Shown here one piece after another: positions 4,228-63,823 of a DNA stretch of 64,000 nucleotides (within the stretch, counting starts at the first letter, position 1; every line of letters starts with the position of its first letter). Under the pieces are notes generated by a model. The model saw only the letters and a program-made list of their open reading frames with translations, ran no database searches and was not told the origin of the DNA. The DNA lies in the sequence record PP337211; one strand, 5' to 3'. The stretch is from Escherichia phage ERS-1. The translations under genes and the position numbers were made by a program.

Positions 4228-4273
4228 GTGAAGAAGCAGACCTGCCGCCGTTTGCCCGAAGAAGTAAAGCCCC
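4228..4273 (-). promoter_or_regulatory. Bipartite conserved motif, copy 2 (degenerate distal half)
   Basis: gtgaagaagcag ... cccgaagaagtaaagcccc; proximal 15-mer intact, distal half and spacing altered. Confidence 0.4.
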
Positions 4274-4950: not shown

Positions 4951-4992
4951 GTGAAGAAAGTATAGTGGGGGCCTCCGAAGAAGTAAAGCCCC
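4951..4992 (-). promoter_or_regulatory. Bipartite conserved motif, copy 3
   Basis: gtgaagaaagtatagtgggggcctccgaagaagtaaagcc, nearly identical to copy 1; minus strand TTTACT-17 nt-TATACT. Confidence 0.5.
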
Positions 4993-11044: not shown

Positions 11045-11082
11045 GTGAAGAAGTATAGTGGTTGTCCGAAGAAGTAAAGCGG
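11045..11082 (-). promoter_or_regulatory. Bipartite conserved motif, copy 4, about 65 nt upstream of an RBS and ATG
   Basis: gtgaagaagtatagtggttgtccgaagaagtaaagcgg with a 15 nt spacer; followed on the minus strand by GGAAAGGAG and the ATG at 10978. Confidence 0.5.
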
Positions 11083-15094: not shown

Positions 15095-17611
15095 TCACGG
15101 CGGAATTCCCTGTCCTGCCCGGAAATACCCTGCTCTGCCAAATTTTGCCGCTGCCTTTGACGGGAGTTCCAGCGGCGTGCGCCTCACGTGGGCGGCTTCC
15201 GCGGCCTCCTTCGTCGTGTACGCTGAAGGCGATCTCGTCGTGGACCTGGATGATGATGTCCGTCTGGCTTCCTGTGCCTCTACGCCGTCCTTGGTCTGGT
15301 CTCGCGGAGGAGCCCTGAATCTGCGGTTGGTCCCTTGTGGTTCTTGCCCGTTCTCCCGTCCTCGTCCTTCGGGAAGTGGTGCGGCGACCGCTCGGTGTCG
15401 TGACGTAGCCGGCGGCCTTCGCCCGGGCTTCGGCCTTTGCCGCTTCTCGATGCAAACGGCCTTGTGGTCGAAGGTGTCCGGGAGGGCCTGACCCTCCGGC
15501 CCCGCGGCCTCGAACCTCCGCGCCCCTTCCGCGACCTGGCGCTGACCCTCCGGGCTGTTCGTGAACGGCCGGAAGCGGGGGCGTGCGGGCGGCCATCGGT
15601 CGGGAGCCCGAGCTTGCGCTCCTCCCCTCGCCCGCCTGTCCCGGTAGGACCTGCCGGTAGATTTCCTTGGCGTCCTTGCGCTTGATCCCCGCCTGTCCGC
15701 CATCATCCGGTGGTTGTCGGTGTTCGGGTCGTTGCGGACTGTCCCGGGCTTCGATTGTGGACCTGCCCTGCTGGTGCCCGTTTGGTCTTTGCCGGGTGGC
15801 GTAGTGGACCGCCTTGCGCGGCTCCTGCTGGCTGTAGTCGTTGGACGCCCTGTGTTGGCCTTCCTCCGGGAGGTAGATGGCCCGCCGCGGCGGCGAACTC
15901 TTCCCCAGCCGGTCGCTGCTGGAGGTTCGGGTGTTCGCTGGACTGTCGCCCGTAGGCAGGCGCCGCGGTCCCGTCGCTTTCGTCTCTTCCCTTCCGGCGG
16001 CGGAGCTGGTCGAACGTCCCGTGGAGGCGCCGTTCGCCATGTGGTCCGGGACGGACTGGCGAAGGTCGTGCGCCTTGTTTGCCTTCCGGCGCGTTCGAGG
16101 AGGCTCTGCCTCGGGTGGCTGATTGAGCCCTGGCTCCTTGTCGATGTTGGGCTTGCCCTGGGAGGTTGTTCGGCTTGATGCCGATGTGTTCGAGGGCGGG
16201 GGCGATCACCTCTGGCTTCCCGGTACGCTGCGGTGATCCGGTGGCCGGTGATCGACCGGACTTGGGCGTGGGCCTCCGTCTCCTTCTCCGCGCCGGGCTG
16301 GTCGGTTGTCCTGGCGGTCGCGTCGATTGCACGCCCCGGCGGCGAAGGCCCGTGAGGATCGGGGCAGGCCGGACTCCCTGGTGCAGGTTGCCCCGGGTCC
16401 TGCCGGACCTCCCGCTCCTGACGGCGGAGGATGTTGGGTGCGCGTGTCCTCCTCCGCGCACTTCCCGAGGCCTTGGCCGGAGGTCCCGGTTGCCCTTCTT
16501 CGGGCAATCCTGTACCACCGCGGCGGCGCGTGCTTCGTCCTTGCCGTGGAAGCCCCACCGCTCCGCGATAGCTTGCATGCTGTAGCCGTCGTGGAGTTTG
16601 GCAGTTGCGGGTCTGCGATCTGGATGTCACGGAAGTAGCGGACCCGCTCCAACTCGAGTGCCGTCCCCGGCGAGGAAGTCCGTTGGTGCCAGGTTGGCCT
16701 CCCAGGTCGCCGGTGAGCACCTTTGCCGGGCGCGGAGGTAGGCCGGTACGCCCTCCGGCCGGTAGGTTGCCCCCGCCTTCGCGTCCGATGGGGAGTACCC
16801 GCCCGGGCCGTCCTCGATTGCGAAGCTGATGCCGGTGATGTAGCTGTTCGGCGACGGCCCGCCCCGGCCCCGAGCTCTCGAGGTCCGGTCCCCGCGTTCC
16901 TGCCGATGGCGACCCGCTCGGCCCTCCCACCAGGGAGGGTGCTGAGGTCCGGGGCCTCCCTGTCGCTGGAGACGGTCGTGAACAGGGTGGTTGGAGGTAT
17001 GAGGCTTGGCTCCCACCTCCGCAATCATCTTGCGCGAGGTTCAGGTGCCGCGGTCTGGCTCCGGGTCGGACTCCCGGAAGGTGAGGATGTGGACCGCTTC
17101 GGCTCCGTCCTCCGTCCTGCCCGTTCGCGGCGGCGAAGGCGTCCGGCATGACGACGGGGCGGAGCGGGGCGAGGACCCCGTTGCGGGCGCCGGACCCTCT
17201 CCCGTAGTGGATCGCCTTCTCGGAGGTCCTGGCGCGGGTCCTCGTGCTCTTGCGGTTGCGGGTCGCGCACTGGTCGCGCGGCCTTCGGTGTAGCGGAGGC
17301 CGTTGGTTCCTCCCAGCTCCTGTGTTGGACGGGCGAGCGGCAGCGCTCATCCGTCCTTGCTTTTCGTTTTGTCCTAACTCTCTTCCTTTGGTTTTGCAGC
17401 CGGAGCGTCTGCTGGCGGTAGTAATACCGGGAACCCCGCCTCCCCGTCGGTGTTGTATGGACCTTGCGGAGGTGCGCGAGTTCTTCCGTGTCGAAGGCGT
17501 AGAACTTCTGCTGCGGGCTCCTGCCGGTTGCTGGCCTCTCCAGTTGTTCGCGCACCACCTCCTCGAGAAGTCCGAGAGACGGCGATGCGGCTGGCGCTTC
17601 GCTGCCCGCAA
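15095..17611 (-). CDS. Family A DNA polymerase with 3'-5' exonuclease domain
   Basis: Minus-strand motifs in correct order: Exo I FYAFDTEE (about 17480-17505), PNLQ box GRQSSEHPNLQQ, motif A DYSQQEPR (15801-15818), GYVTT...GRR, motif C IIIQVHDEIAF (15225-15248), stop about 45 codons later. Frames break repeatedly; N-terminus may extend to the ATG at 18084. Confidence 0.6.
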   Translation of the reverse strand: MRAAKRQPHRRLSDFSRRWCANNWRGQQPAGARSRSSTPSTRKNSRTSARSIQHRRGGGVPGITTASRRSGCKTKGRELGQNEKQGRMSAAARPSNTGAGRNQRPPLHRRPRDQCATRNRKSTRTRARTSEKAIHYGRGSGARNGVLAPLRPVVMPDAFAAANGQDGGRSRSGPHPHLPGVRPGARPRHLNLAQDDCGGGSQASYLQPPCSRPSPATGRPRTSAPSLVGGPSGSPSAGTRGPDLESSGPGRAVAEQLHHRHQLRNRGRPGRVLPIGREGGGNLPAGGRTGLPPRPAKVLTGDLGGQPGTNGLPRRGRHSSWSGSATSVTSRSQTRNCQTPRRLQHASYRGAVGLPRQGRSTRRRGGTGLPEEGQPGPPAKASGSARRRTRAPNILRRQEREVRQDPGQPAPGSPACPDPHGPSPPGRAIDATARTTDQPGAEKETEAHAQVRSITGHRITAAYREARGDRPRPRTHRHQAEQPPRASPTSTRSQGSISHPRQSLLERAGRQTRRTTFASPSRTTWRTAPPRDVRPAPPPEGKRRKRRDRGACLRATVQRTPEPPAATGWGRVRRRGGPSTSRRKANTGRPTTTASRSRARRSTTPPGKDQTGTSRAGPQSKPGTVRNDPNTDNHRMMADRRGSSARTPRKSTGRSYRDRRARGGAQARAPDRWPPARPRFRPFTNSPEGQRQVAEGARRFEAAGPEGQALPDTFDHKAVCIEKRQRPKPGRRPPATSRHRAVAAPLPEGRGRENGQEPQGTNRRFRAPPRDQTKDGVEAQEARRTSSSRSTTRSPSAYTTKEAAEAAHVRRTPLELPSKAAAKFGRAGYFRAGQGIPP

Positions 17612-18080
17612 GGGCGCACGGGTTCGGACTTCGGCCCCGCTCTCCCGTCACCGTCTTGCCTCTCCGGACGGCGCGACCGCTTCGTTGCCCGTGCTCCTCC
17701 CGGCGCTGCCCTGGTCGAGGGCGTCCGCGGCCTTTGCTGTCCTCCTCGTCGGGAGAAGGCCCGGGAGGTGCCTGGTCGCCTGTCGCGGCGTTCCGCGGCC
17801 TCCGTGCCCTTCCCCAGTTCGGGTGGTTCGCTCTCGCCGGGGCCGGCAATGTCGCCTGGCGGAACGCTCCGCGCAGTCGTGCCGCTTGGACCGCCTTGAC
17901 AGGTTCGGCGACGGGTGCGGGTGGAAGGAGGCTCGACGCCGTAGCTGCGCTGGGCGATGTTGTACTGACCGTGGTGCGGGACGATGTGGTCCGGTGGACC
18001 GTCCCGGCCTCCCGGGTCGCGGCGATCCGGGCGGAGCGGCGGACGGCGCGGCGGTTGGCTCCTCCGCCTCGCGCTCCTCG

Positions 18081-18650
18081 TCATGAATCTTGCTTCCCTG
18101 GCTTCCCTTCGTCCGCGTCTCCTCCCTGCCGCGCCGTCGTCATTGCCTGGGCCTCGCGGGCCTCGAAGGCGGCGCGGCGGCGTTGATCCGTTTCCTTCCC
18201 CGGCCGTCTTCCCGTCGGTGGCGGCGACGTTCTCCGCTCGCCCCGGGCGGCGTCGAAGCGGAGGGGTTGGACGCTTGAAAGCCTTGTGGGCCTTGAGGTT
18301 GGGATTGCTCGCGGCGGAAGAAGGGTTGCGGAAGCCGTCGGCGTCCGGCTCGCCGGTGCCCGGCTCCTGGTCGCCTTCCTGCCGGTCCGTGGAGGCTTGA
18401 AGCGGAAGGGCTCCGCGATCCCGGCGGCGTAGGGGTCGGGCGTTCCTTCCCGGGGTGTTGGGTTGGCGGCGAGGTCCGCGAGCGGGCGACCTTGCCCAGT
18501 ACCCTCATCGGCGTGGAAGTTGGCGCTGACTTGGCGGTAGATGCCTTGTTGGCCCGAGGTCCGGCGACGTCGGCGGAGGTAGCTGAAGTGGACCGCGTTG
18601 GCCCCTGTAGGCTCCCCGGGTCCCGTCGTCGGAGCGGTTGGTGCGGTCAT
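18081..18650 (-). CDS. Hypothetical protein
   Basis: ORF with moderately protein-like N-terminus (MTAPTAPTTGPGEPTGANAVHFSYL...); its TGA stop overlaps the next ATG (ATGA at 18081-18084). Confidence 0.3.
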   Translation of the reverse strand: MTAPTAPTTGPGEPTGANAVHFSYLRRRRRTSGQQGIYRQVSANFHADEGTGQGRPLADLAANPTPREGTPDPYAAGIAEPFRFKPPRTGRKATRSRAPASRTPTASATLLPPRAIPTSRPTRLSSVQPLRFDAARGERRTSPPPTGRRPGKETDQRRRAAFEAREAQAMTTARQGGDADEGKPGKQDS

Positions 18651-19025
18651 GTCCGGCCGACCGTCGTGATCTGGAAGATGGCCTGAAGGTTGGCAGGGGA
18701 GGTCCTTGCCTTGGCGGCCTGGTCCGCGTCCGCGCTCCTGTCCAGGACCTGGCGGTGGTCATCGCGGTTCGCCTTCGGGCGGCGATGATCTTGGGCAGTG
18801 GTCCTCGAAGAAGTGCTGGCGCCCTGCGGAAGCCGTAGGCCCCGTGGAAGGTCCTGCCGTCGTCCAGTAGCTGCGCTTGCGACCGGCGAAGCGGGGCGCG
18901 CATTCCGCGTCATTGCGTCTGCCCAGCATCCAGAGGCTTTCCATCAGGTGGAAGAAGGGGTTGGCGTCCCGTTCTGCCCGGCGCGCTCCGCCGGCGGAGG
19001 CGCCGGTGGCGACGGGTTCCGGGCG

Positions 19026-21245
19026 TCAAGCGGGGCCGTTGCGCGAGTCGCGGCGGACGCCCTCGAAGGACCTGTCGAGAGGGCCTCCCGGGAGGGCCTG
19101 TTGTACGTTGCGGGCTTTGATGACTTTGTCTGTTAATTTGAAGATGACGTTGCCGGTCCGGCGAAGGACGCGGAAGCGGTTTGCGGGTGGTGCCCCGTTA
19201 AGCCGGCGTTCGGTTCGCGGATCGGGGGCGATAGCCCGGGACGGCGATTTTAACCGCGAAGGGGCGGGCGAACTGCTCCGCCTCGGCCCGGTTTCATTGT
19301 TTCTGACCGTGGTGACGGAGTTCGTGACGGCCTCCGCGGAGGACTTCGCCTTGGACTTCTCCGCGTCCGCTCGTCCCGGGCCTCTTCTAGGTGTCGGTGG
19401 TGGCTGTGGGCGCTTGGCGTGGTGTACCGGCGTTGTACTCGTGGGACTTGGCGATGCGGCGGCGCTCCCCGAGGTCGCGCGTGCGAAGCGTTGGCCCTCG
19501 AACTGGACCTTGACGTCGCCGTGGTCGGCAAGAAGCCGTCCGGCGCCTGCCCTTCCCGCTTGCGGAGCGGTTCCGGGTAGATGTCGTTGTACACGGCGTC
19601 CCCAGGGTGAACTTCTCCGCCTCCCTGGGCTTTTTTCGCGGGCCTCGAAGGCGTGCTGAGGACCCCTTGCCGCTCGCGGATGTAATTGGACCCGGCACCT
19701 GCCCGAACCTGGCCTCCAGTTCGTCGATGCCGCCGGAATGGTCCGGCGGCGAGGTTTCGATCCGGCGAGGGTGGTTGCCTTGCGCCGTGGTGCTCCAGCG
19801 GGTTTCTTGCCTTCGTCGGTGGTGCGCTTGCTCGTCGAACTTGGCGTGTGTTCGATGTCCCGGGCCTCGAACCGCGGCCCCCGCGCGGGCTCCCGAGCTG
19901 CGGCGGTCCGAAGGTTTCGTCGAAGCCCCGGGCGTCCGTGTTGGCTTGGCTTCGGCTCGATCAGTTTCCGCGTTCGTCTGCTCCGGGCGGGGCTTCGCGG
20001 CGAGGTCGTGCCCTGCTGGCGGTCGAGCCCGCGGATCGCCCCGGCAGGGCGTTGGCCGGTTCCGTGACGTCCTGGGCGTCGTGGTAGCGGGTGTGGCGGA
20101 GGTCGGTCACCGTTGCCCGGACGGCCCCCGCCGACCAGCGGTGCTGCTGGAATTTGGCCCTGCGCTTTCGAGGGTCGGAACCCGCGGAACCTTGGGGCTG
20201 CACTTGGCGGGCTCCGCGTCGCGCGCCCGTTCCTCGCGGTCCTCCCGGTACGGCCCGGCAATCTCCGCGATGTAGCGGTGCTTGGTCCGCTGTACCCTCC
20301 TTGGAGGGGTCGGACTCCGCGCGGATCGTGAGGCTCCGGGCGCCGCCTTGTTGCCCGCGGCGGCGTAGTCCTCCGGCGCTTCGCCGCTTCGCGGGCTCGA
20401 GTCCTCCCCTTTGCCGGGTTCCCGGCTCCGCCTTGTCCTGGAGAGCGGAGGGTGTCGGCTGTTGATGTAGCGGGCGATGGTGAGGGCGGGTCTTGTAAGG
20501 TGCGGGTGGTCCGCGTAGGGCTTGCGGATGTTCTCCTGGTCCTGGTCGTCCCGGGTTGGCTTCGCGGCAAGATGTTAGGGTACTGCCGCCCTCGCGAACC
20601 GGGTCCGCGGTCCGGGGCCGGGCTTCCCGGCCTTGCGGTCGGTAGACGTCGTGCCGGGCCCTTGAAGGCGGCGATGTCGTCGACGCGTGGGTGGTCGGTT
20701 CGGGGTCCTGGTCGGGCTCTCGATGACGGCCTTGATGTCCTTCGGGGCCGTCTCCCTGTGGATGTCGCGGACCGTCTCGCCGTCCGCCGTGGCCTCTCGC
20801 CGGACCCGGGCGATGGTGCGGTGCTTGTCGGCCTCTGGTTCTCCTCGACGGGCTTCCCGCCGTCGCGCTCCTGGATGTGCTTTGGGCTTCCAGCGGCGTG
20901 TCCTGAAGGCCGGGTTGTTCCGCCGTTCGCCTTCGACCCCTGCGCGTATGTAGATGGGCACTGACACCTCGCGCCCTCCAGCCCTACCGCCTTCACGTCC
21001 GGGCCCCGCCAACCAGCTCCGCGACGGCCTTGGCCGCGGCTTGGGTCTTGATCCGGTCCGGACCGGCGGTGGTCGCTCCGGCGGCGGCGGGGGTAGTCCC
21101 CGATGATGGCGATGCCGCCCGGCGCGTCGCCGGGATCGGCTTGTGGTCCGGGACGATGACGTCGATGACGTGGCCTGCGGATCGCGGTCCTGGCTGCGGG
21201 TGTGGTCTTGCCGGAGCCGTTACTGCCCTGCGTGATGTACTTCAT
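19026..21245 (-). CDS. P-loop NTPase (kinase-like N-terminal Walker A); may be more than one gene
   Basis: GGAGAA, 6 nt, ATG at 21245; N-terminus MKYITQGSNGSGKTT; protein-like C-terminal end GNVIFKLTDKVIKARNVQQAL... stopping at 19026; intervening frames broken. Confidence 0.4.
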   Translation of the reverse strand: MKYITQGSNGSGKTTPAARTAIRRPRHRRHRPGPQADPGDAPGGIAIIGDYPRRRRSDHRRSGPDQDPSRGQGRRGAGWRGPDVKAVGLEGARCQCPSTYAQGSKANGGTTRPSGHAAGSPKHIQERDGGKPVEENQRPTSTAPSPGSGERPRRTARRSATSTGRRPRRTSRPSSRARPGPRTDHPRVDDIAAFKGPARRLPTARPGSPAPDRGPGSRGRQYPNILPRSQPGTTRTRRTSASPTRTTRTLQDPPSPSPATSTADTLRSPGQGGAGNPAKGRTRAREAAKRRRTTPPRATRRRPEPHDPRGVRPLQGGYSGPSTATSRRLPGRTGRTARNGRATRSPPSAAPRFRGFRPSKAQGQIPAAPLVGGGRPGNGDRPPPHPLPRRPGRHGTGQRPAGAIRGLDRQQGTTSPRSPARSRRTRKLIEPKPSQHGRPGLRRNLRTAAAREPARGPRFEARDIEHTPSSTSKRTTDEGKKPAGAPRRKATTLAGSKPRRRTIPAASTNWRPGSGRCRVQLHPRAARGPQHAFEAREKSPGRRRSSPWGRRVQRHLPGTAPQAGRAGAGRLLADHGDVKVQFEGQRFARATSGSAAASPSPTSTTPVHHAKRPQPPPTPRRGPGRADAEKSKAKSSAEAVTNSVTTVRNNETGPRRSSSPAPSRLKSPSRAIAPDPRTERRLNGAPPANRFRVLRRTGNVIFKLTDKVIKARNVQQALPGGPLDRSFEGVRRDSRNGPA

Positions 21246-21556
21246 CTTGGGTTCTCCACCGGTTGAAAACGGCGGAGCCGGAGCCCCGCCTGGTTGCTGT
21301 TGGTTGCGTGATCGGGATGATCTTGCGCTCGCCGCCGTCCTCCTCCGGCGGGTCTGGTTCCACGATCTTCTTGAAGTCGGGCGAGCGGCCTTCGCCGCTC
21401 CGGCTGGTTCCGAACCGGCGGGCTTGCCCTTCGTCCGCTGTCCGCGCGGTGGAGACCTGCCGGTGGGGCGCGTCCCTTGACCTCCTGGAAGGGCTGGCCC
21501 GTCGGTCCGGTGAAGGTTCGGCACGCGCTGGCCGTGGCCGGTCTGCGGTGATCATT

Positions 21557-22688
21557 TCACGCCTTCCAAAGCCAGTGCCGGCTCCGCCGGCTCCGGGCTT
21601 CCCGCGGCGGGTCCAGGCGTCGCGTAGGTCGGTTGCCGTGCTCGTCGCCAGTTCCGGTACCTGGCCGGTGGGCTTCGACCCGGCACGGCTCCGCGATGGT
21701 CTTTTCGGGCTCCGGCCTGGTTCTCCGCGGGCTGTCGGCCAAGGCTTTGGTACGCTCCGGTCCGAACCGCTTTGGAGGCGTTCGATCATTGCCGGGGCCC
21801 GCTGTAGCCCGCCTCCCGAATTTTCGGCGATTGTGGTCGTTGCCGACCGCGGCCTGGTGCTCCAGCGTGTGGCGGATGTCGTCGTGGGTGACGATCCCCG
21901 GGATCTGCGGATTGACCTGAATGGAGGTGTAGATGCCCTGACGGCGCTCGGCCATTTCGTCAGATGGTCCTGAAGGCTGATGGCCCCGGCAGGCCGTGCC
22001 GTTGTGGTCGTTGCCGGTGTTCTGTGACTTCTGGGCGTAGCTGTAGGGGTTCCGCTTCGGGTGCCCATGGCCCGTGACGGTAGCCGAGACGGCTGGAAAG
22101 AAGATGGTGCCGGGCTCCCGAAGGCTTCCGCCCCCGCCGGGCGTTATGGGCGCCGTCCCGGTTGGGAAGGGGTCCGTGAAGCTGGAGAAGTAGCCCGCGG
22201 CGGAGGTCCGGGACTTCGAGAGGGTTTGCGGACCTGCTCGCCGGAGTTCGCCGGGACGCCGATGAGGCCGGTGCCGCGGTAGCCCCGGAACCCGCTGTCG
22301 ACGTAGCAGGCGCGTGCCGCCTGTAGCCCTGGAGGTTCGTTGATCGCCTCGCTGAAGGGGCGGGCGCGGGAGCCTCGCTCGTCGTTGCGCTTGTCCTGGT
22401 ACCTGCCCTGAAGGGGCTTGGCGTTCGGGATGCGGATGTGCGGGAGGTAGGTGACGTCGTTTGAAGCGGCAGGCCCTCCACCTCCTTCTTGTCGTCGTCC
22501 TTCGCGTCGCGGACCTTCCCCTCTGCCCTTGCCGGAACTTCGCGCGGCTGGTCCTGTGGGTTTCCTTCTCCCCCATCGGGTCCTGGAACTCCCGTTGGTT
22601 CGGTCCGGCGGGCGAAGACTTGTAAGCCTCCTGCAGCGGCTTCGCCGGTTCTTCTGTCCTTGCCGCGTGGTCGGTGCCATTCTCCTTC
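21557..22688 (-). CDS. Hypothetical protein
   Basis: High third-position GC segments ([27 protein letters not shown]; [42 protein letters not shown]); starts just downstream of motif copy 6. Function not assignable. Confidence 0.35.
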
Positions 22689-22690
22689 AA

Positions 22691-22729
22691 CTGTGAAAGT
22701 CAGCGCCTTACCCGGAAGAAGTAAAGCGG
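22691..22729 (-). promoter_or_regulatory. Bipartite conserved motif, copy 6 (proximal half intact)
   Basis: ctgtgaaagtcag...ccggaagaagtaaagcgg immediately upstream of the minus-strand gene starting near 22688. Confidence 0.4.
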
Positions 22730-25671
22730 CGTTAATTCGGCCCGGCTCGCCCGTCGCTTCCGGGCGGCTCCCCTGGCCTTCGTCTCCTCCGAACGCCGGC
22801 GACCGGCGAACTGCCCGGAACCGTGCGGCGACCCTTCCGCGTCGGGTCGTCTGGTTGTCCTTTTGGGACCCGAGGGTGAACGCTTGGGGTTGACGGTGGC
22901 GGTCGGTCGCTGTGAACCTGGCGTCACCGCTGTCGGGGATCGGCAATTGTTCGAAGGGCTCGAGGATAGCCGATTCCTGCCGCTTGTAGTCGATGTTGGC
23001 GTGTACCGTGCTGAAGTACCTGGAGCAGGTCGGGTCCTGTGCTCCCGTCTCCGGGTCCTCCTTACAGCGGGCGTTTAGGTGAGCCGGTCCGTCACGGTTA
23101 CCGATGTTCGGGCGATGGGGCGTGGATGGACGGAAGCCTGTCGAGCGGGTCGCTGCGTTTCGGCTTTTGGGACGGTAACGGGTTGGGGAACGGGGCGGAG
23201 GCGTCCCGGGCCGCGTCCGCGTACCCGTAGCCCTCGTCCGGATGGGTCGATCCGGTTGCCCGGTCCGGCCCGCGGCCTTCTCGATGTACTCCCGGCTGGC
23301 GTCCTGGCTCCGCAGATCCGCTTGTGGAGGATGACGTCGTAGTTGCGGAGGCTCGCCTCCTCCAAGCCCTCGAGTGCCCGGCGGCGACCGTCCCCCGAGC
23401 CGACACCGATGACCGGGTCCCGGCAGTCCGGGAGGTGCGGGGCGGTGCGGACGGCCTCCGCGGCGTTCTCCGTGATCGACTCCGGGAGCTTGGGGCGTTG
23501 GCTGTAGCTGTCGTGGTAGTTCTCCTGGTGCTCTGGCCGGACGGGCGATCGCGGAGCGGCCCGCCGGGATGTCCAGGTCCGCCCCGAGCTGGCGAGCGTG
23601 CTGCTGTTGGACGCGCGGGCGTCCGCGGCCCCGTCGCGCTTGAAGCGGGGCCCGTAGTTCGCTTGCACCCGTTCCCCAGCTGCTGGCGTAGGCGACCGCC
23701 CTGCCCGCCTTCGAGCGGCACGTGTCCGGCTGCCGATGGTGGTTCTTCTGCTGGTCTCGATATGGGCGAGGCCCCGTGAATCTCGCTGAAGGACGGACCC
23801 GGAGCGCCCTGCTCTCCCGCTTCAGGATCGGCACCCCGTCAGCTGGTGTTCGACCGGGGCGTCGTTGACGATTGTTGCTGCTCTTGGGCGTGGTCGAGGA
23901 AGGCCCGTGCGGCGGAGGCGGCCTGCCTCGGTCGAGCCCGCCGTCGATTTCCCGGATGTCGTTCCGGGTGGGAGCTGGCCCTTCGCGGGATTTTCCGGTT
24001 TGCCGCCGCACCGTCTCCACCTTCTGGATGTTCGGCGGGCGGTTGCCGGGTGGGGCGAGGTCCGCGAACTGCCGGTTTGTAAGTCCGCGACCCTGGGCGA
24101 TCGCCTCGCGCTTGGGCTTCGCGTTCTCCGGGTACTCGTGAGCCTCGCGCCGCTCCGCCGTCGCGGCCTTCTCCGGTCCTTGAAGCGAAGACGGCGGCGT
24201 TGTCCGAGTCCGCCGGCATCTCGACCGGTTCCGGCTTGTCGCGATCTTGAAGCTGATCGGGACTGAAGCCGTTGTGCTCCTGGGCGCGGGCGGAGACGGT
24301 GCGGAAGGGGCGCTCCTCCTCCGTCGCCCGGGCTCCCCGGTGGGTGCCCCGCCTCCCGGGCGGTCGCCGAGCGGGCCTGGAGGGAGGTCCCGCAGTCGGC
24401 GGTGCGACCCTGGCCTGTAGCGGCGGCGCTCGCGTCCCCGGAGGCCTGTGACCCCCGGCGGGCGTCTCCTCCTCGTGGTGGGCCGCGACGTCCCTTTGCG
24501 GAACCTCGCCCTCCTTCTCCAGGAAGGAGGCGACCCCGGCGTGGAGTAGCTCCAGGTTGAGGCTAGCCTGTGGGCGGGTGGAGAAGTCCCCCGCCTGCCC
24601 GCGCCGAACCAGGGCCGTGCACACGGGGTCGGATCGCGGTGGTGATCCGGTGTCGGCCGGGAACGTCTCGATGTCCGGTTGGGGCAAGTTTCTGCCGTGT
24701 CTTTTCTCTGGTATGCGTGACCGATTTTCCCGCTCGTGTCCTTGCACATGTCCGGTTGGGTAATTGGCGACTGAAGGAAGGCTCCGTGCGGACTTCTTCG
24801 TTGACGTGAATACGGGATGGACCGTCTGCCCTTGCCGTCGCCGTCCTCCGTGATCCGGGTGAATCCCGCAGGTAGCTTGAGGGCTCCCTTCTGTATCCCC
24901 GCTCCGCCGGGCACCTCCGGCGGAGGGTAGCCGCGTGCGCTCCGAGGCTCCCAGTGGCCTTGCCCTGCTTGGGCTGGCGGGCTACCGGCGGGCGTCCTGC
25001 CTTCGGCGGACTTCTGCGGCTCGTGGGCCGGGATCGCGTGGCCTTCCGGGACCTCACGTGGAACCGCTTGTGCCGTCCGCGGCGAAGGCGGAGCGGCACC
25101 CGCAGCCCTTCCGCTTCATGTCCTGCTGAAGCCGGAGGGCGTGGCTCGGTCCGGGCTTGTTGCTGCCCGGGCTTCGACCTGTTCCTGCCTTGGTCGTCCG
25201 TTTCGGGGCGGGATCCTGTATGTCGGGAGACGCCCGCTCCAGCCCTCGCGGCGGGGATCGGGGCGTGGCCCGGGCGGCCGTGTCGGCGCCGCGCGGGGCG
25301 CGGGCCTTCTTCTCCTCCGCGGACTTCGGAGCCTTCTGGGCCTTCGGAGGCGACGGGGCGGGGGTTGCGGTTTGTTTGCGGTTTCGACCTTCTGGGTTCG
25401 GCCTGCTCTGCCGCTCAAACTTCCGGGTGCGCTTCGGCATAACGCGCCAGGCATCTTCTGGTGTGGGGCAATGGCGGTGGTCTTGTTGGCGAAGCGGCGC
25501 ACGTTCGGACGGACTTGCCGTTGCGGAAGGTGCCGATGACTTCGTCGGACCTGCTCGACCAGGGCTGGGCCGGAGGGCTCGCTGGGAGGCTTCGGTGTAG
25601 GCGACGTTGTCGAAGTTGATGGTGTTGGCGGTAGGCTCCTTTTCTGGGGTTGAGGTGCGATCTTGTTCGAC

Positions 25672-25713
25672 CGTGAGAGAATCTTAACCCTGGCCCCCGA
25701 AGAAGTAAAGTGG
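25672..25713 (-). promoter_or_regulatory. Bipartite conserved motif, copy 7
   Basis: cccgaagaagtaaagtgg; minus strand TTTACT, 17 nt, TAAGAT; followed by an AAAAGGAG leader. Confidence 0.4.
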
Positions 25714-30966: not shown

Positions 30967-32947
30967 CCCAGGCGTCCACCGCGATGTAGCGTTGGTCCTT
31001 GCCGCTCCCTTAGCAGGGACGTCCCGTCGTTGGCGTCCGCGGCGATGGCGACGGCGAACCGATTGGGTACCGGATCGCCCGAGGCGAGGTGGTCCCCCGG
31101 CCCGAAGTCGGCCCGCTTTCTCCTCGGGCCGGTCATTCGGCTCCGGGCGGAAGGGGCCGCGGTCGGGCGGCGGGCACCGGCCTTCCCCAACTCCTCCGCC
31201 GGCGAGGTTGAATTTGGGCTCGAACCGCTGCTCGTCGCGGTCCCTGCGGTGTTGGTCTGTACAAATACACGGCTCGGGGTAGTCGTCACAACCTGTCTTT
31301 GAGGCGGTCGCCGGTGATCTGGCTCGCCCGTCCAATTCGTTTCGGCTTTCCCCTTCCCTTCCCCGGAGTCCTGCGCCCAGGTCGATGCACCTGCCCGTTG
31401 TTGGTCTGTCCGATCCGGTGGGCGCGGTCCTCCGACTGGAGGCGGTCGTTTGGCTTGAAGCTGTTGGAATAATAAAATGACCTGCTCTGGCTGTGGTCGG
31501 GTGCCGGTGCTGCGTCGCCCCCGCCGCGGGGTTGCCCTTTAGCCTCGCGGGCCCGCTCCTCCGGCGGACGGCCTCGCGCCCTGGACCCTGCCCGTTGTGG
31601 GCAGCGGGCGCTCGCCCTGGAACCGGGCCTCGGCGTCCGCCCGCTCGTCGTTCGTTTCCTGCCCTGCGGCGGACCGCGCCGACGCCGCGCTCGCGGAGGG
31701 CGTCCATTTGGTGATGTCCGCTTCTGGAACCGGGCCCGGTCATCGCCTTGCGCCGGACTCCGACGGTTCCGGGGTGTCGGTGACGGCTCGGCCCCGGGAT
31801 TGTGTACCCGGGTTCCGCTTCGTCGTCGGTCGGGAGGTAGCTGGCGTGATCTGCTGGAGGCGGAGGAGCCGGGTGATGGCGAGGGCGGCGATGACCGGGG
31901 CGGTGCCCTCCGCGCCCTGTCGGGGCGTCTCCTGGTCGGTGGGTAGACGAAGCCGTTGAAATTTTTTACCGCCGTTTGCCCGGTGCCGGGCGTCCGGCGA
32001 CGGCTCCGCGGCGACCGCTTCCGCGTCCCGAAACCCGGCCCGTTCCGCCCTGTCGATGACCTGTTGGTGCTGGTGAGAACCTGCTTGCCCTGCTCCGGTC
32101 GTCGGGAGAACCGCTTGCTGGACCTGCTTCGGCGGGAGGTCGAGCACCCTTCCTTCGTGACCTGGGAGGAGACGGGCTGGAGGAGGCTGTTCGGGTGTCC
32201 AGGCGGCGATAGCCCTCTGCGTCGGGTCTGTTGCCGTCGTTCTTCTTGGTCTTGGGGTTGAAGGCGGTCGGGTTCTGCTTCTTCCAGATGCCGAAGTGCT
32301 GCTTGAACTCCGTGAGGTCCCTGCTGGTCTCGTTCCGTAGTTGTTGGTTTAAAACTCCATCTGGCTGTAGGCGTCGAAGGGTCCCGAGGGTTCCGCAGTC
32401 CCGGTCGGTGATCGCCCTGAATGGCGCGTACTTCGCGGAGCGGAGGATGGACTTGGGGTGCGCTCCGCGGTCGGGGTCTTGATGCAGTGCGCCTGTCCCG
32501 GACGTAGGAGGCGGCGCTTGTCGAAGAAGTTGGTTGGCGCCCGCTTCCCGGAGGTGGTGGTGAAGGCTTCAGGCGATGGTGGAGCCTGGCGAAGCCCTTG
32601 TGCTCGATGACGGCCTTGACCGCCTGGCTTGTGCCGCTTGGTGTCGGCCTTCGGGCTCTGGTAGTGGAAGGCCCGGGACGTGCTTGATCGCCTGCTTCGG
32701 GTACGTGGTCCGGGATTCCCTTCTGTCCCTGTTGCGGTGCACGCCTGTTCGGGGCGACACCAGCACGCCGTCCGATGAGCCCGCGGAGCCTGGCCAGCAG
32801 TGCGGTGTCGATGGCTGCTTGGACTTGCCGGTGCCCTGTTCCCGGAAGATCGCGCGGGCTTCTTCTTCGCGGAGCGTGCCGCCCTCGCGCTGGTGGTTGA
32901 AGGGTTCGGCTTGAAGGGGTATTCGGGGCGGCTCCGCTTCGGTGATG

Positions 32948-33060
32948 CCCGGAAGTATAGCCCGCTGGGCGGCGAAGGCGAGCGGAGAATCGGGTGCGCT
33001 TGGGACGGGGCCCTGGCGCTCACTTCGTGTGCTGAAGAAGTATGAAGTGGAGTAAGCGTG
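32948..33060 (-). promoter_or_regulatory. Cluster of degenerate motif copies at the left edge of the 33 kb hub
   Basis: ggaagtatag (32951-32960) and gaagaagtatgaagtggagtaagc (33035-33058). Confidence 0.3.
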
Positions 33061-33287
33061 GAAGCCCTGCGGGCTGGGGGTTTATATTCTTCTTCTTCTT
33101 CTCTTAACTCACTCAACTACTTACCTTAAACCCCGCACGGCCTCCGAAACCTAGCAAACGGTCGTGTCGCCTCCCTGGTGGGGTCCCGGCGATTTATCGG
33201 GCGAAGTAGAACTGAACTGGAGAAGTGAAGTAACCTAGCGGGAGGGTCGGAGCTGTTACGGCGCTGGGCTTTCCATGGCGCTTGGGG

Positions 33288-33316
33288 TCTACTTCTTCGG
33301 GCGTGAAGGTAATATT
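33288..33316 (+). promoter_or_regulatory. Motif-like element in opposite orientation (possible rightward promoter)
   Basis: tctacttcttcgggcgtgaaggtaatat: TCTACT, about 16 nt, TAATAT on the plus strand. Confidence 0.3.
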
Positions 33317-36300
33317 GGCAGCGGTCACCTATTTGTGGAACCCCTTGAGGCCTGAAGGACGGGGAGACCTGGCTGCAGAAGAAGATGCCCTGGTGGCGTC
33401 CCCTTCCGCTTCTGCCTCCCCTGACTCGCGCCCGGCGGAGGTGTTGGAAGTCCCTCTGCGGCGACGGTCGGACGTGTCCGCCCGAGCTGGACTGTGTTCG
33501 CTTCACCGCTCGGCACACGTCGTTGGCTCCGAGTGGACATGGATTGCCGTTTCCGCGGCTCGCTTCGCCGCGTCCTCCGGCAGAGTTTCGCCGCCCGGGT
33601 CGTGCCGGGACGGCGATGTCTTCGACTTGCTCCGGGCGGGGGTGTTCGGGGCCTCGAATTAAGATGATCGGCTGGATTTCTACGAGTTGGAGGGCCTTAA
33701 CTTTAGATGGCTGCCTGTTGTGTCTCCCTGCGAGCCCGTGGACGTGTTCGGCTTGCCGGGTGGTGTCGAGTATTGGCCCCCGATCCGAGGCGGCGCTCGC
33801 CGCCGGGCGGTTCGCGGTCGTGCCGTAGCCGCGGAGGAACTTCCCGCGCCGCCGTTGGTGCCGGTAGGCGCCGTCGGCACCTCGGCGGACGGCCCTGCCC
33901 TTCTTCGGCGAGATTCGCGCCGTCGCCGCGCTCGAATAGCGCGCGATCCGTTGGCCCTGACCTGTTCGCGCCGGTCGGGCTCGCCGGCGCCACGTTGCTC
34001 CGCGGGCGAAGCCGGTTGGGCGGTCGTGGTCGCGGACTTCGCGTGGCCTGCAAGGCCGTCGTCACTGGGCGGAGGAAAGACTTTGCAATTGGTCGCAGGC
34101 GCTGGTCCCTGCTGGCGCCTTGCCTTCACGCCGGTCGGCTGTTACCGATAGCCGTGGACCTTCGGGACAGTTTCCAAACTCGTTCCCGAGTCTGCTGATC
34201 CGGTTCCAGTCGTGGGATCGGTAGCTGTCCGGCCGTCGCGGACCGCCGTGACCTTGATCCGGTTCCGGCCCGCGGCGTTCTCCGTCGCCTCGTCGGTCCG
34301 TTGCTAGCGCCGGTTGGCCGGCTCCGACTTCGGAGCGTGCCGCCGTCGGCCGCGTAGATGTCCGCGGCAGGTTACCCGGCTCCGGCCGATGTTCGCCGCG
34401 GCGTGGTCGATGATCGGATGGACCCCGCCGGGTCCGGGTCCGCGGTGCGCCGGGTAGAGGCTTGTGACCTCCGAGGATAGCCGAAGGATACTGGAGACTG
34501 TTCGCCGGAAGTTCCCGGGAGCGTAGGCGCGCGAAACGGCTCGCGCCTCCGAGCTCCTCCGGGGGCGGAGGTGCCGGACGCCGACCCCGGACTGGCCCTG
34601 GCCCTTCGCGGCGATGGTCTCGCCGCTGTCAGACGGAGACGGTCGTGCGCGGGCGTCCTCCGCGAACCGGGTAACCGCGCCCCGGCTGCGCGTTCCGGCG
34701 CGCATGAATCCAGTTGACGGCCCGCTGGCGATCCCGTTCGGCCCCAGTGTCCCGGCGATTTCGTTGTCGGTTGCGGGTTGCTCGTGGGGGTCGGTGCGGG
34801 AGGGCCTGTTGGGCCGGATGGAGGTCTGTATGGGCGTGATCGCGTTCGTCCGGCGTAGCGTGCGCCGCGGGTCGCCGGTGGCCGCGTATGCGTAGGACCC
34901 GCCCGTGGCTTGTCCTGGTCGGGCTCTGGAGGTACTGGCGGGCTCGCCCCTTCCCTGCCGATCGGTAAGGCGGAGGCGTTGTCCGGCGCCTGGACTCGCC
35001 CGAGGGTGCTGTTCGCCTTGGCAGTTCGCCTCCTCCGGAACGGCGGAGGGCGAACGGGTTGGGCGCTTGACCGGTCCTCCCCTGCCCGAGCCCTGGTTGC
35101 CCGTAGGTGGAGGACGGAAGGCCAAGCGGTTCTGAACCGTTCACCCAGATTTCGTCCCCACCTCCGCTGCTGGCGGCTCCGCCCAGCTTGCCCGAGGACG
35201 CGGAGCCACGTCCACAGGCTGGTGCTGGTCCCAGGAGAAGCGGTACGCCCCCCAGGGTCAGGTTCCATGCGTTCCGGTTCACCCGGATGCGGATGCGTGC
35301 GAAGGGGGTGGACTTCTCGGCGGAGGTCGCGGACGCCGTTTCGCCGCGTTCGCCGCGGTGTCGATCCCGGAGAGTTCGCCGTCTGGCCGTCACGCCCGTT
35401 GGGCCTGGATCGCCGCGAGGTCCTGCACGGTTGCGGAACCCGTCCTGCGGAGCCTTGCGGACGGTAGGTGACCTCTTATTCCGTTAGCACTCGCGTAGCC
35501 CGGGCGCTCGAGGACTCCTGCGGATCGCGTCGGACTGTCGGACCTGCGGAGGCTTCGCCGCCAGTAGCCCTGCGCGGTACTGCTTTGCCCTGAACTTACC
35601 GGTTGTCGGGTTGCGTGTAGGAGGTCCGTTGCTGTGGTGGCCTGTTGTACACACGAAGGACTGATGGAGCTCCTGCTCGGTCGACGGTTGAGACGCCGGC
35701 CTTCCGCGCGTGAAGGGTGTCCGCGGCGCGAAGGCGGCGCTGTCGGGCGTTGATCGGGCACCCGTCCTGTCCGGGTTCGCTCTGTGTTCTGCAATGACGT
35801 GGCGGGGTTCGCCAGCCGTTGACGTCCGCCTTCTCCGGAGAACCGGCCTTGCCCGGAGGCGCTTCGCCTTTGGTGCCTGGCCTTCCGGCAGGCGGCGGTC
35901 GGTGCCCTTCCGGAAGAACCTGCGAAAGGACGCCCCGGAAGGCCGGGACGGCGGTGCCGATTTTTGATTGGAGGTAACTGTTGCGGCCCTGGTTCGATTC
36001 CCCCCCACGTCCGTAGCCCTGGACACCCCTCCTCCTCGCCGCCGAGGCTCCGGGCTGTCGATGTAGATTTGCTGCGAGGCCGTCACGTCTCCGCTCCGGC
36101 GGTCCGGTTGCCCGGGCATTTCTGGACGGAATCACTGGCCCGTGAGGGGTTGCCAGGTGGGCGCCAGACAACTTGTACCCAATCGTTACGACAGATTTGC
36201 TGCCCGGCCTTCTGCGACTTGTAGCGCCGTGGTCGCCGGTCGCCTCCGCTCCTCCGCCGGCATGCCCTCGTGGACGTGCTGCGGTCCCTGCCCGTGTCGG

Positions 36301-57901: not shown

Positions 57902-58282
57902 TTGCAGTTAGGCGGGTCGCGCGCGGGGAGAGGTCAGGAGCGTGTGGCGAGGTGCTGTCTCAGGGACAAACCAAATGATGTTTAACCTTAGCAGACCACC
58001 CGGTCCCAAGTAGACTACACATAACCATCGCTAAGGTTAACCTGGTAACCTGCACACAATACTCTCAGCACCTCTATCCGCTTTTTATTTAAAAACTCTT
58101 GGTTTCTTTTAAACGTTTGGCCCGATGATTTTTTGTTGCAAAGAGGTTTCCTTATTTTCTGTTGTTTCTTTTGATTCCCCTTTAACCAGTGAATTTCTAG
58201 GTGCTGGGAACTCTGTGTCCCAACTTACCAGGTTAACCTTAGCAATACGTAACTGAACCAAGTAGATGCTAGCAAGTCAATT

Positions 58283-58510
58283 GCTAAGGTTAACAGACGA
58301 CTACAAACGGAATCTACAGCGTCAATTGCGTAGTGAAGTAAGAAAGTTGAAAAAATCAGTTTACATTGACGATGATTTTGATTACAATACTTCTCAACCA
58401 GTTTAAGTTTAAATTAATCTTTTGAGGTTTGTCGGAACAATTTATATTAAACTGGTTCTTTTTAAACAGGTGCTGTCGATTCCGTTTGTAGTCGTCTGTT
58501 TAACCTTAGC
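58283..58510. repeat. About 38 bp inverted repeat flanking a 151 bp AT-rich spacer
   Basis: Left arm 58283-58320 gctaaggttaacagacgactacaaacggaatctacagc; right arm 58472-58510 is its reverse complement with one indel and one mismatch. Confidence 0.7.
58360..58388 (+). promoter_or_regulatory. Near-consensus sigma70-like promoter facing right
   Basis: TTTACA (58360-58365), 17 nt, TACAAT (58383-58388), inside the IR spacer; downstream AAGGA (58551-58555) and ATG at 58565. Confidence 0.5.
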
Positions 58511-58564
58511 ATATGTCTAATGTCGAAGCCACACACCACCGCCAGAGTTAAAGGATCGACTCCC

Positions 58565-63793: not shown

Positions 63794-63823
63794 GCTTTAC
63801 TTCTTCGGACTCTATCACTTCTT
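63794..63823 (+). promoter_or_regulatory. Bipartite conserved motif in plus orientation (right-arm counterpart of copy 4)
   Basis: gctttacttcttcggactctatcacttctt on the plus strand, followed by GGAAAGGAG as at copy 4; spacer is shortened. Confidence 0.45.

Follow-up and report, generated by a model that had tools for sequence, protein, structure and literature searches.

A non-coding region with promoters facing both ways between gp01 and the helicase gene in a Yuavirus nanopore read

The 64,000-nucleotide sequence recorded for Escherichia phage ERS-1 (PP337211), referred to below as the window, contains a region at 32,948-33,320 that an earlier reading of its letters, here called the sequence-only reading, had described as a low-GC palindromic hub with motif copies on both strands. 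We compared this region with related phages, and it corresponds to the intergenic region between gp01 and the helicase gene gp02 of phage YuA and other members of the genus Yuavirus. The feature is a real regulatory hub with promoters facing both ways, and the hub has already been described for the type phage YuA. The central idea of the sequence-only reading, that copies of a motif occur in both orientations, is borne out by the error-free sequence.

The gap between gp01 and the helicase gene

The segment 32,948-33,320 falls in a non-coding gap of ~400 bp, and the corresponding gap is ~427 bp long in the phages PAE1, Churro and YuA. A small gene (PAE1 Orf32, YuA gp01) follows the tail genes on one side of the gap, and on the other side gp02, which encodes a SNF2-type DNA helicase, opens the block of DNA-metabolism and replication genes. 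The proposed placement between structural and replication blocks is thus confirmed by synteny with PAE1, Churro and YuA. All flanking genes lie on the minus strand of the window, and since PAE1, Churro and YuA likewise carry all their genes on a single strand, the genes do not change strand here. The gp01 homologue, the last gene before the hub, has its stop codon at approximately 33,329-33,331 (minus strand) by alignment. The start codon of gp02 belongs at 32,923-32,927 (minus strand), where the alignment with PAE1 and Churro shows that it was deleted in the read, with CCATAGGG reduced to C---GGGG. The GC content is 0.50-0.59 across 33,000-33,400 compared with ~0.68 for the window, in agreement with the low GC noted before.

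The homology to YuA 413-839 spans the whole hub, and all blocks align. Open reading frames (ORFs) in YuA 413-839 are either at most 41 amino acids long or spurious overlaps typical of GC-rich DNA. Some phage records annotate an antisense ORF of 37 amino acids in the gap, which we regard as over-calling rather than as a gene. Rfam searches gave no family at the gathering threshold in the window or the PAE1 locus and none at E <= 1 in YuA 300-950, and no gene was found by a tRNA and tmRNA scan.

When the locus was used as a 4-kb query, 62 phage records matched it at ~82% identity over 99% of its length. Most of them (52 of the 62) are Pseudomonas phages, and these belong to the genus Yuavirus (YuA, M6, PAE1, LKO4 and others); the identity of the window to every isolate is ~80-82%. 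Window positions 797-57,578 are collinear with one turn of the circular YuA map in reverse, and the minus strand of this block is the YuA plus strand. A second molecule at 58,582-64,000 matches YuA 17,375-22,861 in the orientation opposite to the rest, and because of this reversal the window must be a chimeric read. It is an unpolished, chimeric nanopore read, with 77-83% identity to YuA and about one gap opening per 22 nt, and the low identity together with the frequent gaps breaks every long reading frame.

The gp01-gp02 region of YuA is a homologous locus with the same gap and the same order of elements, and the window can be aligned to it base by base. The window represents another isolate with ~20% errors, which have damaged the gp02 start codon, one of the GCGCTTAGG boxes, and the hairpin described below over half its length. 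Over the ~430 nt of the hub, the window differs from the consensus of its relatives at 94 positions, only 7 of which are shared with any relative. Since the window is a raw chimeric read of this quality, in which the proposed inverted repeat is at chance level and one proposed hexamer pair is an error product, we considered whether there is nothing real here except a chance low-GC patch or a sequencing artefact. This explanation is refuted by the promoter and transcript maps of YuA, whose region carries mapped promoters and transcript ends, and by conservation, with a mean mutual identity of 96% among 12 independent relatives and synteny in three phage genera; its probability is negligible. 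The sequence-only reading had itself named ordinary coding sequence, with no strand switch and no transcript start, as the finding that would speak against it. The genes indeed keep to one strand, but the gap is non-coding and YuA transcripts start on both of its strands.

Promoters, boxes and hairpin

The promoter-trap data of YuA were taken from GenBank record NC_010116.1, and the transcript starts and ends from ONT-cappable-seq (Putzeys et al. 2024, PMC10914365; bioRxiv 10.1101/2023.10.13.562163, Tables S3-S5). These features were carried to window coordinates by alignment; the transcript data are those of YuA and not of the window isolate.

The YuA start P003 lies at 814 on the plus strand, 26 nt before the ATG of the helicase gene, and is classified as a "phage promoter" (bioRxiv 10.1101/2023.10.13.562163). 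The corresponding P003-type promoter, which drives the helicase gene, is located at 32,946-32,982 on the minus strand of the window. The alignment predicts a start at 32,946, some 26 nt ahead of the helicase ATG, with the -10 TATACT at 32,954-32,959 and a degenerate -35 near 32,977-32,982, and TATACTTC is present without any change at 32,952-32,959 of the minus strand. A promoter of the P003 type is also annotated in the LKO4 record at 778-806.

The start P002, also classified as a "phage promoter", lies at 612 on the minus strand of YuA (Table S3, bioRxiv 10.1101/2023.10.13.562163) and is antisense to the genes. A fuzzy match together with the YuA position places the P002-type promoter at 33,103-33,140 on the plus strand of the window, with a predicted start at 33,140. 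Its core (33,103-33,125) is the reverse complement of GGTAAGTAAGTTAAGTAAGTTAAG with two substitutions and one deletion in the read, and is followed on the plus strand by a -10-like TAAAC at 33,127-33,131 (TAAAC(C) to 33,132). The sequence upstream of P002 is the reverse complement of TTTAAGGTAAGTAAGTTAAGTAAGTTAAGAAGAAG and equals, on the plus strand of the window, the left arm of the inverted repeat that had been proposed. Directly upstream of this promoter, an AT-rich tract of TATAT and a (TTC)n microsatellite occupies 33,083-33,102 (plus strand) and may act as an UP element or as an easily melted tract. The TATATT with a TTC run that had been pointed out is indeed present at 33,083-33,100, and it sits on the plus strand directly upstream of the P002 core.

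A host sigma-70-type promoter faces P002. The YuA record lists an 80-bp promoter-trap fragment of "medium activity (1000 MU)" at 489-568, with -35 TTAGGT at 509-514 and -10 TTCAAT at 532-537. In the window this trap promoter lies at 33,211-33,240 on the minus strand, where it overlaps the GCGCTTAGG box and forms the right arm of the proposed repeat. Its -10 is at 33,211-33,216 and reads TTCAGT instead of the TTCAAT of YuA, and its -35 at 33,233-33,237 has lost one base compared with TTAGGT. When we scanned window 32,500-33,800 for sigma-70 promoters (at least 9 of 12 positions of TTGACA-N16-18-TATAAT with correct spacing), none was found; the same scan of YuA 1-1200 returned only the promoter P001 at 4-32, and the pair TTAGGT/TTCAAT falls below the threshold. 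Consensus scans, for sigma-70 promoters and for terminators alike, carried little information at this locus.

The YuA paper reports that nine YuA promoters have a common motif and probably require a phage-encoded factor (PMC10914365). The "phage promoter" class reads CTTTACTTCTTCGG ... CACTATACTTCTT, roughly TTTACT-N17-TATACT, and the canonical promoter consists of two related boxes 23 nt apart, CTTTACTTCTTC at -35 and CTATACTTCTTC at -10. The -10 of the class, TATACT(TC) at ~8-13 nt before the start, is present for P003, whereas P002 has TAAAC(C) only. The -35 CTTTACTTCTTCGG has no copy within 2 mismatches at 32,948-33,320, the versions of P002 and P003 being degenerate, and the class label of these two is the grouping made by the authors with MEME (PMC10914365). 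Elsewhere in the window there are six exact CTTTACTTCTTCGG copies, all on the gene-sense strand of their own molecule, five of them on the minus strand (2,566-2,579, 4,256-4,269, 4,975-4,988, 11,066-11,079 and 25,697-25,710) and one on the plus strand (63,795-63,808). These six copies are probably the repeated motif to which the sequence-only reading referred.

A long hairpin with the behaviour of a two-way terminator lies at 33,278-33,326, as judged from the folding of YuA 417-466 and from the flanking transcript ends. The YuA hairpin has a folding energy of -24.9 kcal/mol compared with -9.9 +/- 2.5 for shuffled sequences (z = -5.96), and none of 200 shuffles was as stable. The YuA transcript ends T004 at 471 (plus) and T003 at 411 (minus) flank this hairpin, and antisense units were reported from 612 to 411 (201 nt) and from 612 to 60 (552 nt, across gp01) (bioRxiv 10.1101/2023.10.13.562163). 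We read the hairpin as a two-way terminator: on the minus strand of the window it stops the gp01 mRNA, and on the plus strand it stops the antisense RNA from P002. The stable GC-rich stem of an intrinsic terminator is present in YuA. A T-run was not found after the stem, and intrinsic-terminator scans of the window and of YuA did not call the hairpin; its sense side is followed by CATCGAAAGCC and its antisense side by ATTCTCATTTTT, which is partly T-rich. The window copy is damaged by read errors, and this accounts for the pair TCTACT-16 nt-TAATAT that had been noted on the plus strand. The letters are present (TCTACT at 33,288-33,293, TAATAT at 33,310-33,315), but the pair is a read error inside the hairpin, since 12 relatives read GGGGTCTATACTTCTTCAGGTGTGAAGGTAAGTAGCCCAAGCGC there, and from these aligned sequences the true form should be TCTATACT...AAGTAGCCC. 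A structured antisense RNA was considered and rejected, as the 208-nt YuA transcript has an overall z of only -0.88 and its terminal hairpin alone is unusually stable.

The arms of the proposed inverted repeat, 33,082-33,125 and 33,200-33,240, were then compared with shuffled sequences. In the window the repeat scores 13 against 12.3 +/- 2.6, a score that 766 of 2000 shuffles reach, and a repeat-finding run on the window did not list it. In YuA the same arms agree at 16 of 20 nt, a score that 43 of 2000 shuffles also attain. In distant relatives they form a clear inverted repeat, of 24 nt at 92% with the arms separated by 86 nt (CTTGACTTACTTGACTTACTT facing AAGTAAGTTAAGTAAGTTAAG) and of 32 nt at 81%. 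In three such relatives, L065, L069 and L075, the arms are 24-32 nt long and match at 80-92%. Since the arms are clear in distant relatives, the sequence-only reading appears to have picked up a genuine symmetry of ancestral origin, which has decayed in Yuaviruses and is further obscured by read errors here, and we infer that the "inverted repeat" corresponds to two face-to-face promoters with common TTACTT-type boxes. The proposal of an internal regulatory region thus stands in that the region is non-coding and YuA transcripts start on both of its strands, while its palindromic nature cannot be demonstrated in the window.

The motif-like boxes in both orientations proved real in error-free relatives. 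When the 12-mer CTATACTTCTTC was searched in YuA allowing 2 mismatches, 15 matches were found genome-wide, and minus-strand copies occur only in this hub (444 and 660) and in a paralogous hub upstream of the small terminase gene terS (32,984). The 9-mer GCGCTTRGG occurs seven times in YuA, six of them in these two hubs and in both orientations. Two exact inverted pairs (100%) frame the YuA hub, 416-426 with 754-764 (11 nt) and 442-453 with 715-726 (12 nt). On the window, a GCGCTTGGG box at 32,996-33,004 (plus strand, antisense to the genes) lies ~50-60 nt upstream of the P003 start and pairs with the position of YuA 416-426. A ATACTTCTTCAG box of the -10 type with no mapped start is found at 33,032-33,043 (minus strand, sense), and it is the 12-nt, 100% inverted partner of a box in the hairpin.

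These boxes raise an explanation close to the original idea of the sequence-only reading, in which TGCGCTTGGGnTAC, CTATACTTCTTC/TTACTT and CGATAAATCG would form an operator array. A repressor or an activator would bind there, perhaps drawing the ~340 bp that separate the outer inverted pairs into a loop, and would time the replication and packaging modules. The concentration of GCGCTTRGG in the two hubs and the exact long-range pairs fit such an array, as do the overlap of one box with the sigma-70 -35, the position of another upstream of the P003 start, and the occurrence of the boxes in both Yuavirus and Vojvodinavirus; moreover, the YuA paper proposes a phage factor for the promoter class (PMC10914365). 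However, two of the four boxes make up the stem of the terminator hairpin, so that RNA structure explains them, and about 2 copies of a 9-mer are expected per genome by a rough estimate, so that the numbers are small. The product of the neighbouring gp01 has no DNA-binding signature in its sequence. On balance we regard the operator array as a rather unlikely explanation.

Two further features lie in the hub. A small GC hairpin or repeat (GCCCCGCTGGGCT in YuA) is located at 33,063-33,074, and its second copy is the P003 spacer. The two YuA copies, 683-695 and 789-801, form a direct repeat with 100% identity, and the stem is seen in the window. The conserved CGATAAATCG block (sense strand) lies at 33,190-33,199, just downstream of the sigma-70 -10, and is conserved as TTC(G/T)CCCGAyAAATCG in Yuavirus, in Bordetella and Stenotrophomonas phages and in relatives from IMG/VR.

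The conserved core and the reading of the locus

The new point of our comparison is that the core with its AT-rich microsatellite recurs upstream of the helicase gene and of the small terminase gene across distant phages. The core consists of (AAGTAAGTT)2-3, about 2.5 repeats, followed by the AT-rich microsatellite, and its direct repeats adjoin the most AT-rich tract. In YuA, 33,014-33,230 upstream of terS repeats the hub unit, in the order of a trap promoter (CTTAGGTTACTT...), CCCGAyAAATCG, a GC-rich spacer and GGTAAGTAAGTTAAGTAAGTTAAG, with (TATC)n instead of (AAG)n. The paralogous unit of promoter, core and microsatellite upstream of terS spans 32,940-33,230 in YuA (L003), 5,634-5,963 in L011 and 9,877-10,107 in L036. 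It was also sought in the window, where positions 1-796 have no match and the hub centre is absent; the window has a single core copy because its first DNA molecule ends before the centre of the paralogous hub.

The same layout is present upstream of the helicase gene in Bordetella phage FP1 and Stenotrophomonas phage Sonora, although the Sonora core has diverged. When IMG/VR was searched for exact matches, the 24-mer turned up in 32 stretches and the 18-mer in 81; some of the low-GC 18-mer matches may be unrelated period-9 repeats. At ~40 IMG/VR loci the core is positioned on the sense strand, 180-250 nt upstream of the helicase start or 290-370 nt upstream of the terS start. The core-bearing loci range in GC from 0.35 to 0.66 and in terL identity down to 56%, and phages with no more than 42-50% identity between their helicases still carry the 17-24-nt core without a changed letter; an exact-match search favours conserved copies, and this conservation is partly a matter of ascertainment. 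The tract after the core varies by lineage, as (AAG)n, (TATC)n, (TAA)n, (TA)n or (GTT)n. One contig of 53 kb (3300043400_000014) carries two near-identical units ~26.5 kb apart, both inverted relative to the helicase and terS genes; the helicase of this contig shares 43% identity with gp02, and its terS bears no relation to the YuA gene. When the literature was searched for the core sequence, only three papers came up, none of them connected with phages, and no description of the core was found.

The strongest alternative to a purely transcriptional hub is that the unit is, or also is, a T7-like replication origin or else an array of sites to which a conserved phage protein binds. The primary origin of T7 comprises the promoters 1.1A and 1.1B followed by an AT-rich region, and T7 also has the promoters phiOL and phiOR. 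The hub resembles this origin in having a promoter and, within ~80 nt, the most AT-rich tract beside replication genes, in phages with a replisome of PolA and primase-helicase. It differs in that the host polymerase reads the promoters and in that transcription from the start mapped at this tract runs away from it. As an origin, a promoter with a melted AT tract and the iteron-like (AAGTAAGTT)2-3 repeats and microsatellite would prime replication for PolA and the primase-helicase; the terS unit would be a second origin, and a transcriptional role could coexist. Several observations fit this proposal. First, the unit, composed of promoter, ~70 nt of GC-rich spacer, 9-nt direct repeats and AT microsatellite, is the lowest-GC spot in a genome of 64-68% GC, and it lies directly upstream of the helicase gene. 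Second, a letter-perfect core is more typical of a dedicated site for a phage protein than of a host-polymerase promoter. Third, the microsatellite unit is free to change, which suggests that composition matters rather than sequence. Finally, the core is inverted at both sites of one contig with its position kept, and the layout is like that of the T7 primary origin and of phiOL and phiOR. On the other side, the one experimental signal at the core, a 5'-triphosphate start with its 201-nt and 552-nt products, is fully explained by a promoter, and the apparent conservation is in part an effect of exact matching, with the Sonora core having diverged. We consider a T7-type origin unlikely. GC skew was rejected as an indicator of the origin, because one-strand genes and strand-biased read errors dominate it.

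Recombination offers another explanation of the core, which would then be kept as a homology patch linking modules, for module exchange or gene conversion, with no regulatory role. The same core stands at two module starts per genome, and contig 3300043400_000014 has retained it beside its unrelated terS. Among the IMG/VR loci there are also hybrid hubs, with a terS-type left arm before the helicase gene in L009 and an (AAG)n tract before terS in L033, which suggests exchange or gene conversion between the two hubs. However, a mapped transcript start uses the core as a promoter, a patch of 24 nt is short for homologous exchange, and the distance from core to start codon is kept within 180-250 and 290-370 nt, which suggests a positional function. 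A mere linker is therefore very improbable.

A broader proposal for the core, which we put forward as speculative and probably incorrect in its full form, is that GGTAAGTAAGTTAAGTAAGTTAAG, the variable microsatellite and the inverted TTACTT-type arm ~50-110 nt away constitute a deeply conserved cis-element that marks the starts of the helicase and terS modules far beyond YuA-like phages. It would be recognised by a conserved phage protein and serve as a transcription-activated origin or as a master switch for both modules. The letter-perfect 24-mer common to the upstream regions of helicase and terminase genes in distant phages is the one part of this analysis that might repay further work.

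Based on these observations, we suggest, with a probability of roughly three in four, that the locus is the Yuavirus gp01-gp02 intergenic control region, in which the phage promoter P003 starts the helicase RNA, P002 fires antisense to the genes and the hairpin stops transcription, with a switch from early to late expression inferred from this arrangement. Early in infection, the host sigma-70 polymerase would use the trap promoter and read a leader of ~295 nt into the helicase gene. Once the presumed phage factor for the "phage promoters" appears, P003 would take over helicase transcription with a short leader. Transcription from P002 would then run against and over the early promoter and on through gp01 into the last part of the late operon. 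By transcriptional interference it would shut off the early promoter, and it would keep the two modules apart. The hairpin would serve as a stop in both directions, and the AT-rich microsatellite as an UP-like upstream element for P002. The trap promoter was active in isolation (1000 MU) yet no start was detected there in infected cells, which is compatible with silencing but is not a proof of it.

Several points weigh against this explanation. The early-to-late switch and the interference are deductions, and the time points of the cappable-seq were pooled (PMC10914365). The sequence of the window phage is ~20% erroneous here, and the mapped transcripts are those of YuA. The hexamers of the trap promoter, TTAGGT/TTCAAT, fail a standard consensus scan, its -10 is not kept in FP1, and the cappable-seq of YuA infection lists no start at this promoter. 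The hairpin has no sense-side T-run and is not called as an intrinsic terminator. Furthermore, the YuA cappable-seq lists no antisense start at the terS-upstream unit, and the inverted core of contig 3300043400_000014 is explained by a DNA site that works in either orientation no less well than by an antisense promoter of fixed direction.

The control region can also be compared with known systems. The YuA paper, as far as its available part goes, lists the starts and ends, and leaves the face-to-face layout, the two-way hairpin, the terS unit and the conservation of the core undiscussed (PMC10914365). The antisense promoter P001 of LUZ19 (Phikmvvirus) was proposed by the same authors to stop read-through into the wrong module on the circularised genome (PMC10914365). 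Like P002, it is a phage-type promoter directed against a one-directional genome at a module boundary. LUZ19, however, brings a single-subunit RNA polymerase of its own, an enzyme that YuA-like phages lack; these depend on the host polymerase together with a presumed factor. LUZ19 P001 has neither sequence similarity to the hub nor a face-to-face host promoter. Face-to-face promoters are also known from pR and pL of coliphage 186, where transcriptional interference together with a repressor takes part in the choice between lysis and lysogeny. The hub similarly has convergent promoters tens of nucleotides apart, with YuA starts at ~544 (plus, predicted) and 612 (minus), ~68 nt from each other, but YuA-like phages are reported to be lytic and interference in the hub is putative. 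It is at the hub that the late operon of a circularly permuted genome with one direction of transcription is set apart from the replication operon, and the hub's face-to-face and back-to-back promoters with a two-way hairpin would make a compact example of control by antisense transcription.

The neighbouring gene and the nanopore read

The sequence-only reading had suggested looking for a small regulator gene beside the hub. The protein of the adjacent gp01 belongs to a PHROG of unknown function and has a weak, sub-threshold Phasin match and a C-terminal hydrophobic segment, and no DNA-binding signature was found when it was checked for one. It looks like a membrane-anchored protein rather than a regulator. 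YuA 4-32 contains a good sigma-70 consensus, TTGCCA-17-TAAAAT, which is the published P001 with its start at 40 (YuA 4-32 and 38-52), and because gp01 has its own promoter P001, it is a separate small transcription unit. The 552-nt antisense RNA of YuA covers gp01 entirely.

The errors of the read are strand-specific. When the window is compared with YuA, a reference A is kept in 58% of cases, changed to G in 16% and deleted in 13%, and changes to A are almost absent. The same bias occurs in both orientation blocks and therefore tracks the sequenced strand and not the genes. It depends on context, since the A is kept in 19% of CA dinucleotides compared with 87% of GA; viewed from the opposite strand, T in 5'-TG-3' (~35% of all T) is nearly always miscalled. 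The loss of A in CA fits the miscalling of a modified T within 5'-TG-3' of the sequenced strand, which would tie the errors to base modification. M6-type phages carry 5-(2-aminoethyl)uridine, and restriction-resistant sites of M6 are enriched for TG/TC (PMC6449724). The error pattern fits TG-specific thymidine hypermodification in this Yuavirus. For the window itself, the main value of the analysis is negative and practical, as the region is a known control region and several of the apparent signals, along with the "island" at 58 kb, are artefacts that arose when heavily modified DNA was read by nanopore and the read was left unpolished with its adapters in place.

This 51%-GC island, which had been suggested as an element for comparison with the hub, is a block at 57,949-58,520 that we take to consist of Oxford Nanopore native-barcode flanks, barcodes and adapter sequence. 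The flanks are AGGTGCTG...TTAACCTTAGCAAT and AAGGTTAA...CAGCACCT, with at least 3 different barcodes, one of them the exact 24-mer TCGATTCCGTTTGTAGTCGTCTGT, and the adapter is AGCAATACGTAACTGAAC.... Part of the block matches hundreds of records of Escherichia and other T4-like phages at 90-99%. It is thus barcode and adapter with short inserts of other DNA, and no paralogue of the hub.

Window 1-796 looks coding and has no counterpart in YuA (58.7 kb) at E<0.001; it presumably represents extra genes between gp49 and the terS hub, as in Yuavirus isolates of 61-62 kb. The first DNA molecule ends at 57,948 (~YuA 33,399), inside the hub upstream of terS, roughly 100 nt short of that gene and 18 nt away from the start P014 of YuA (33,417). 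This end could be a true end of the packaged genome near a pac site, as captured by a ligation library, or a mere break.

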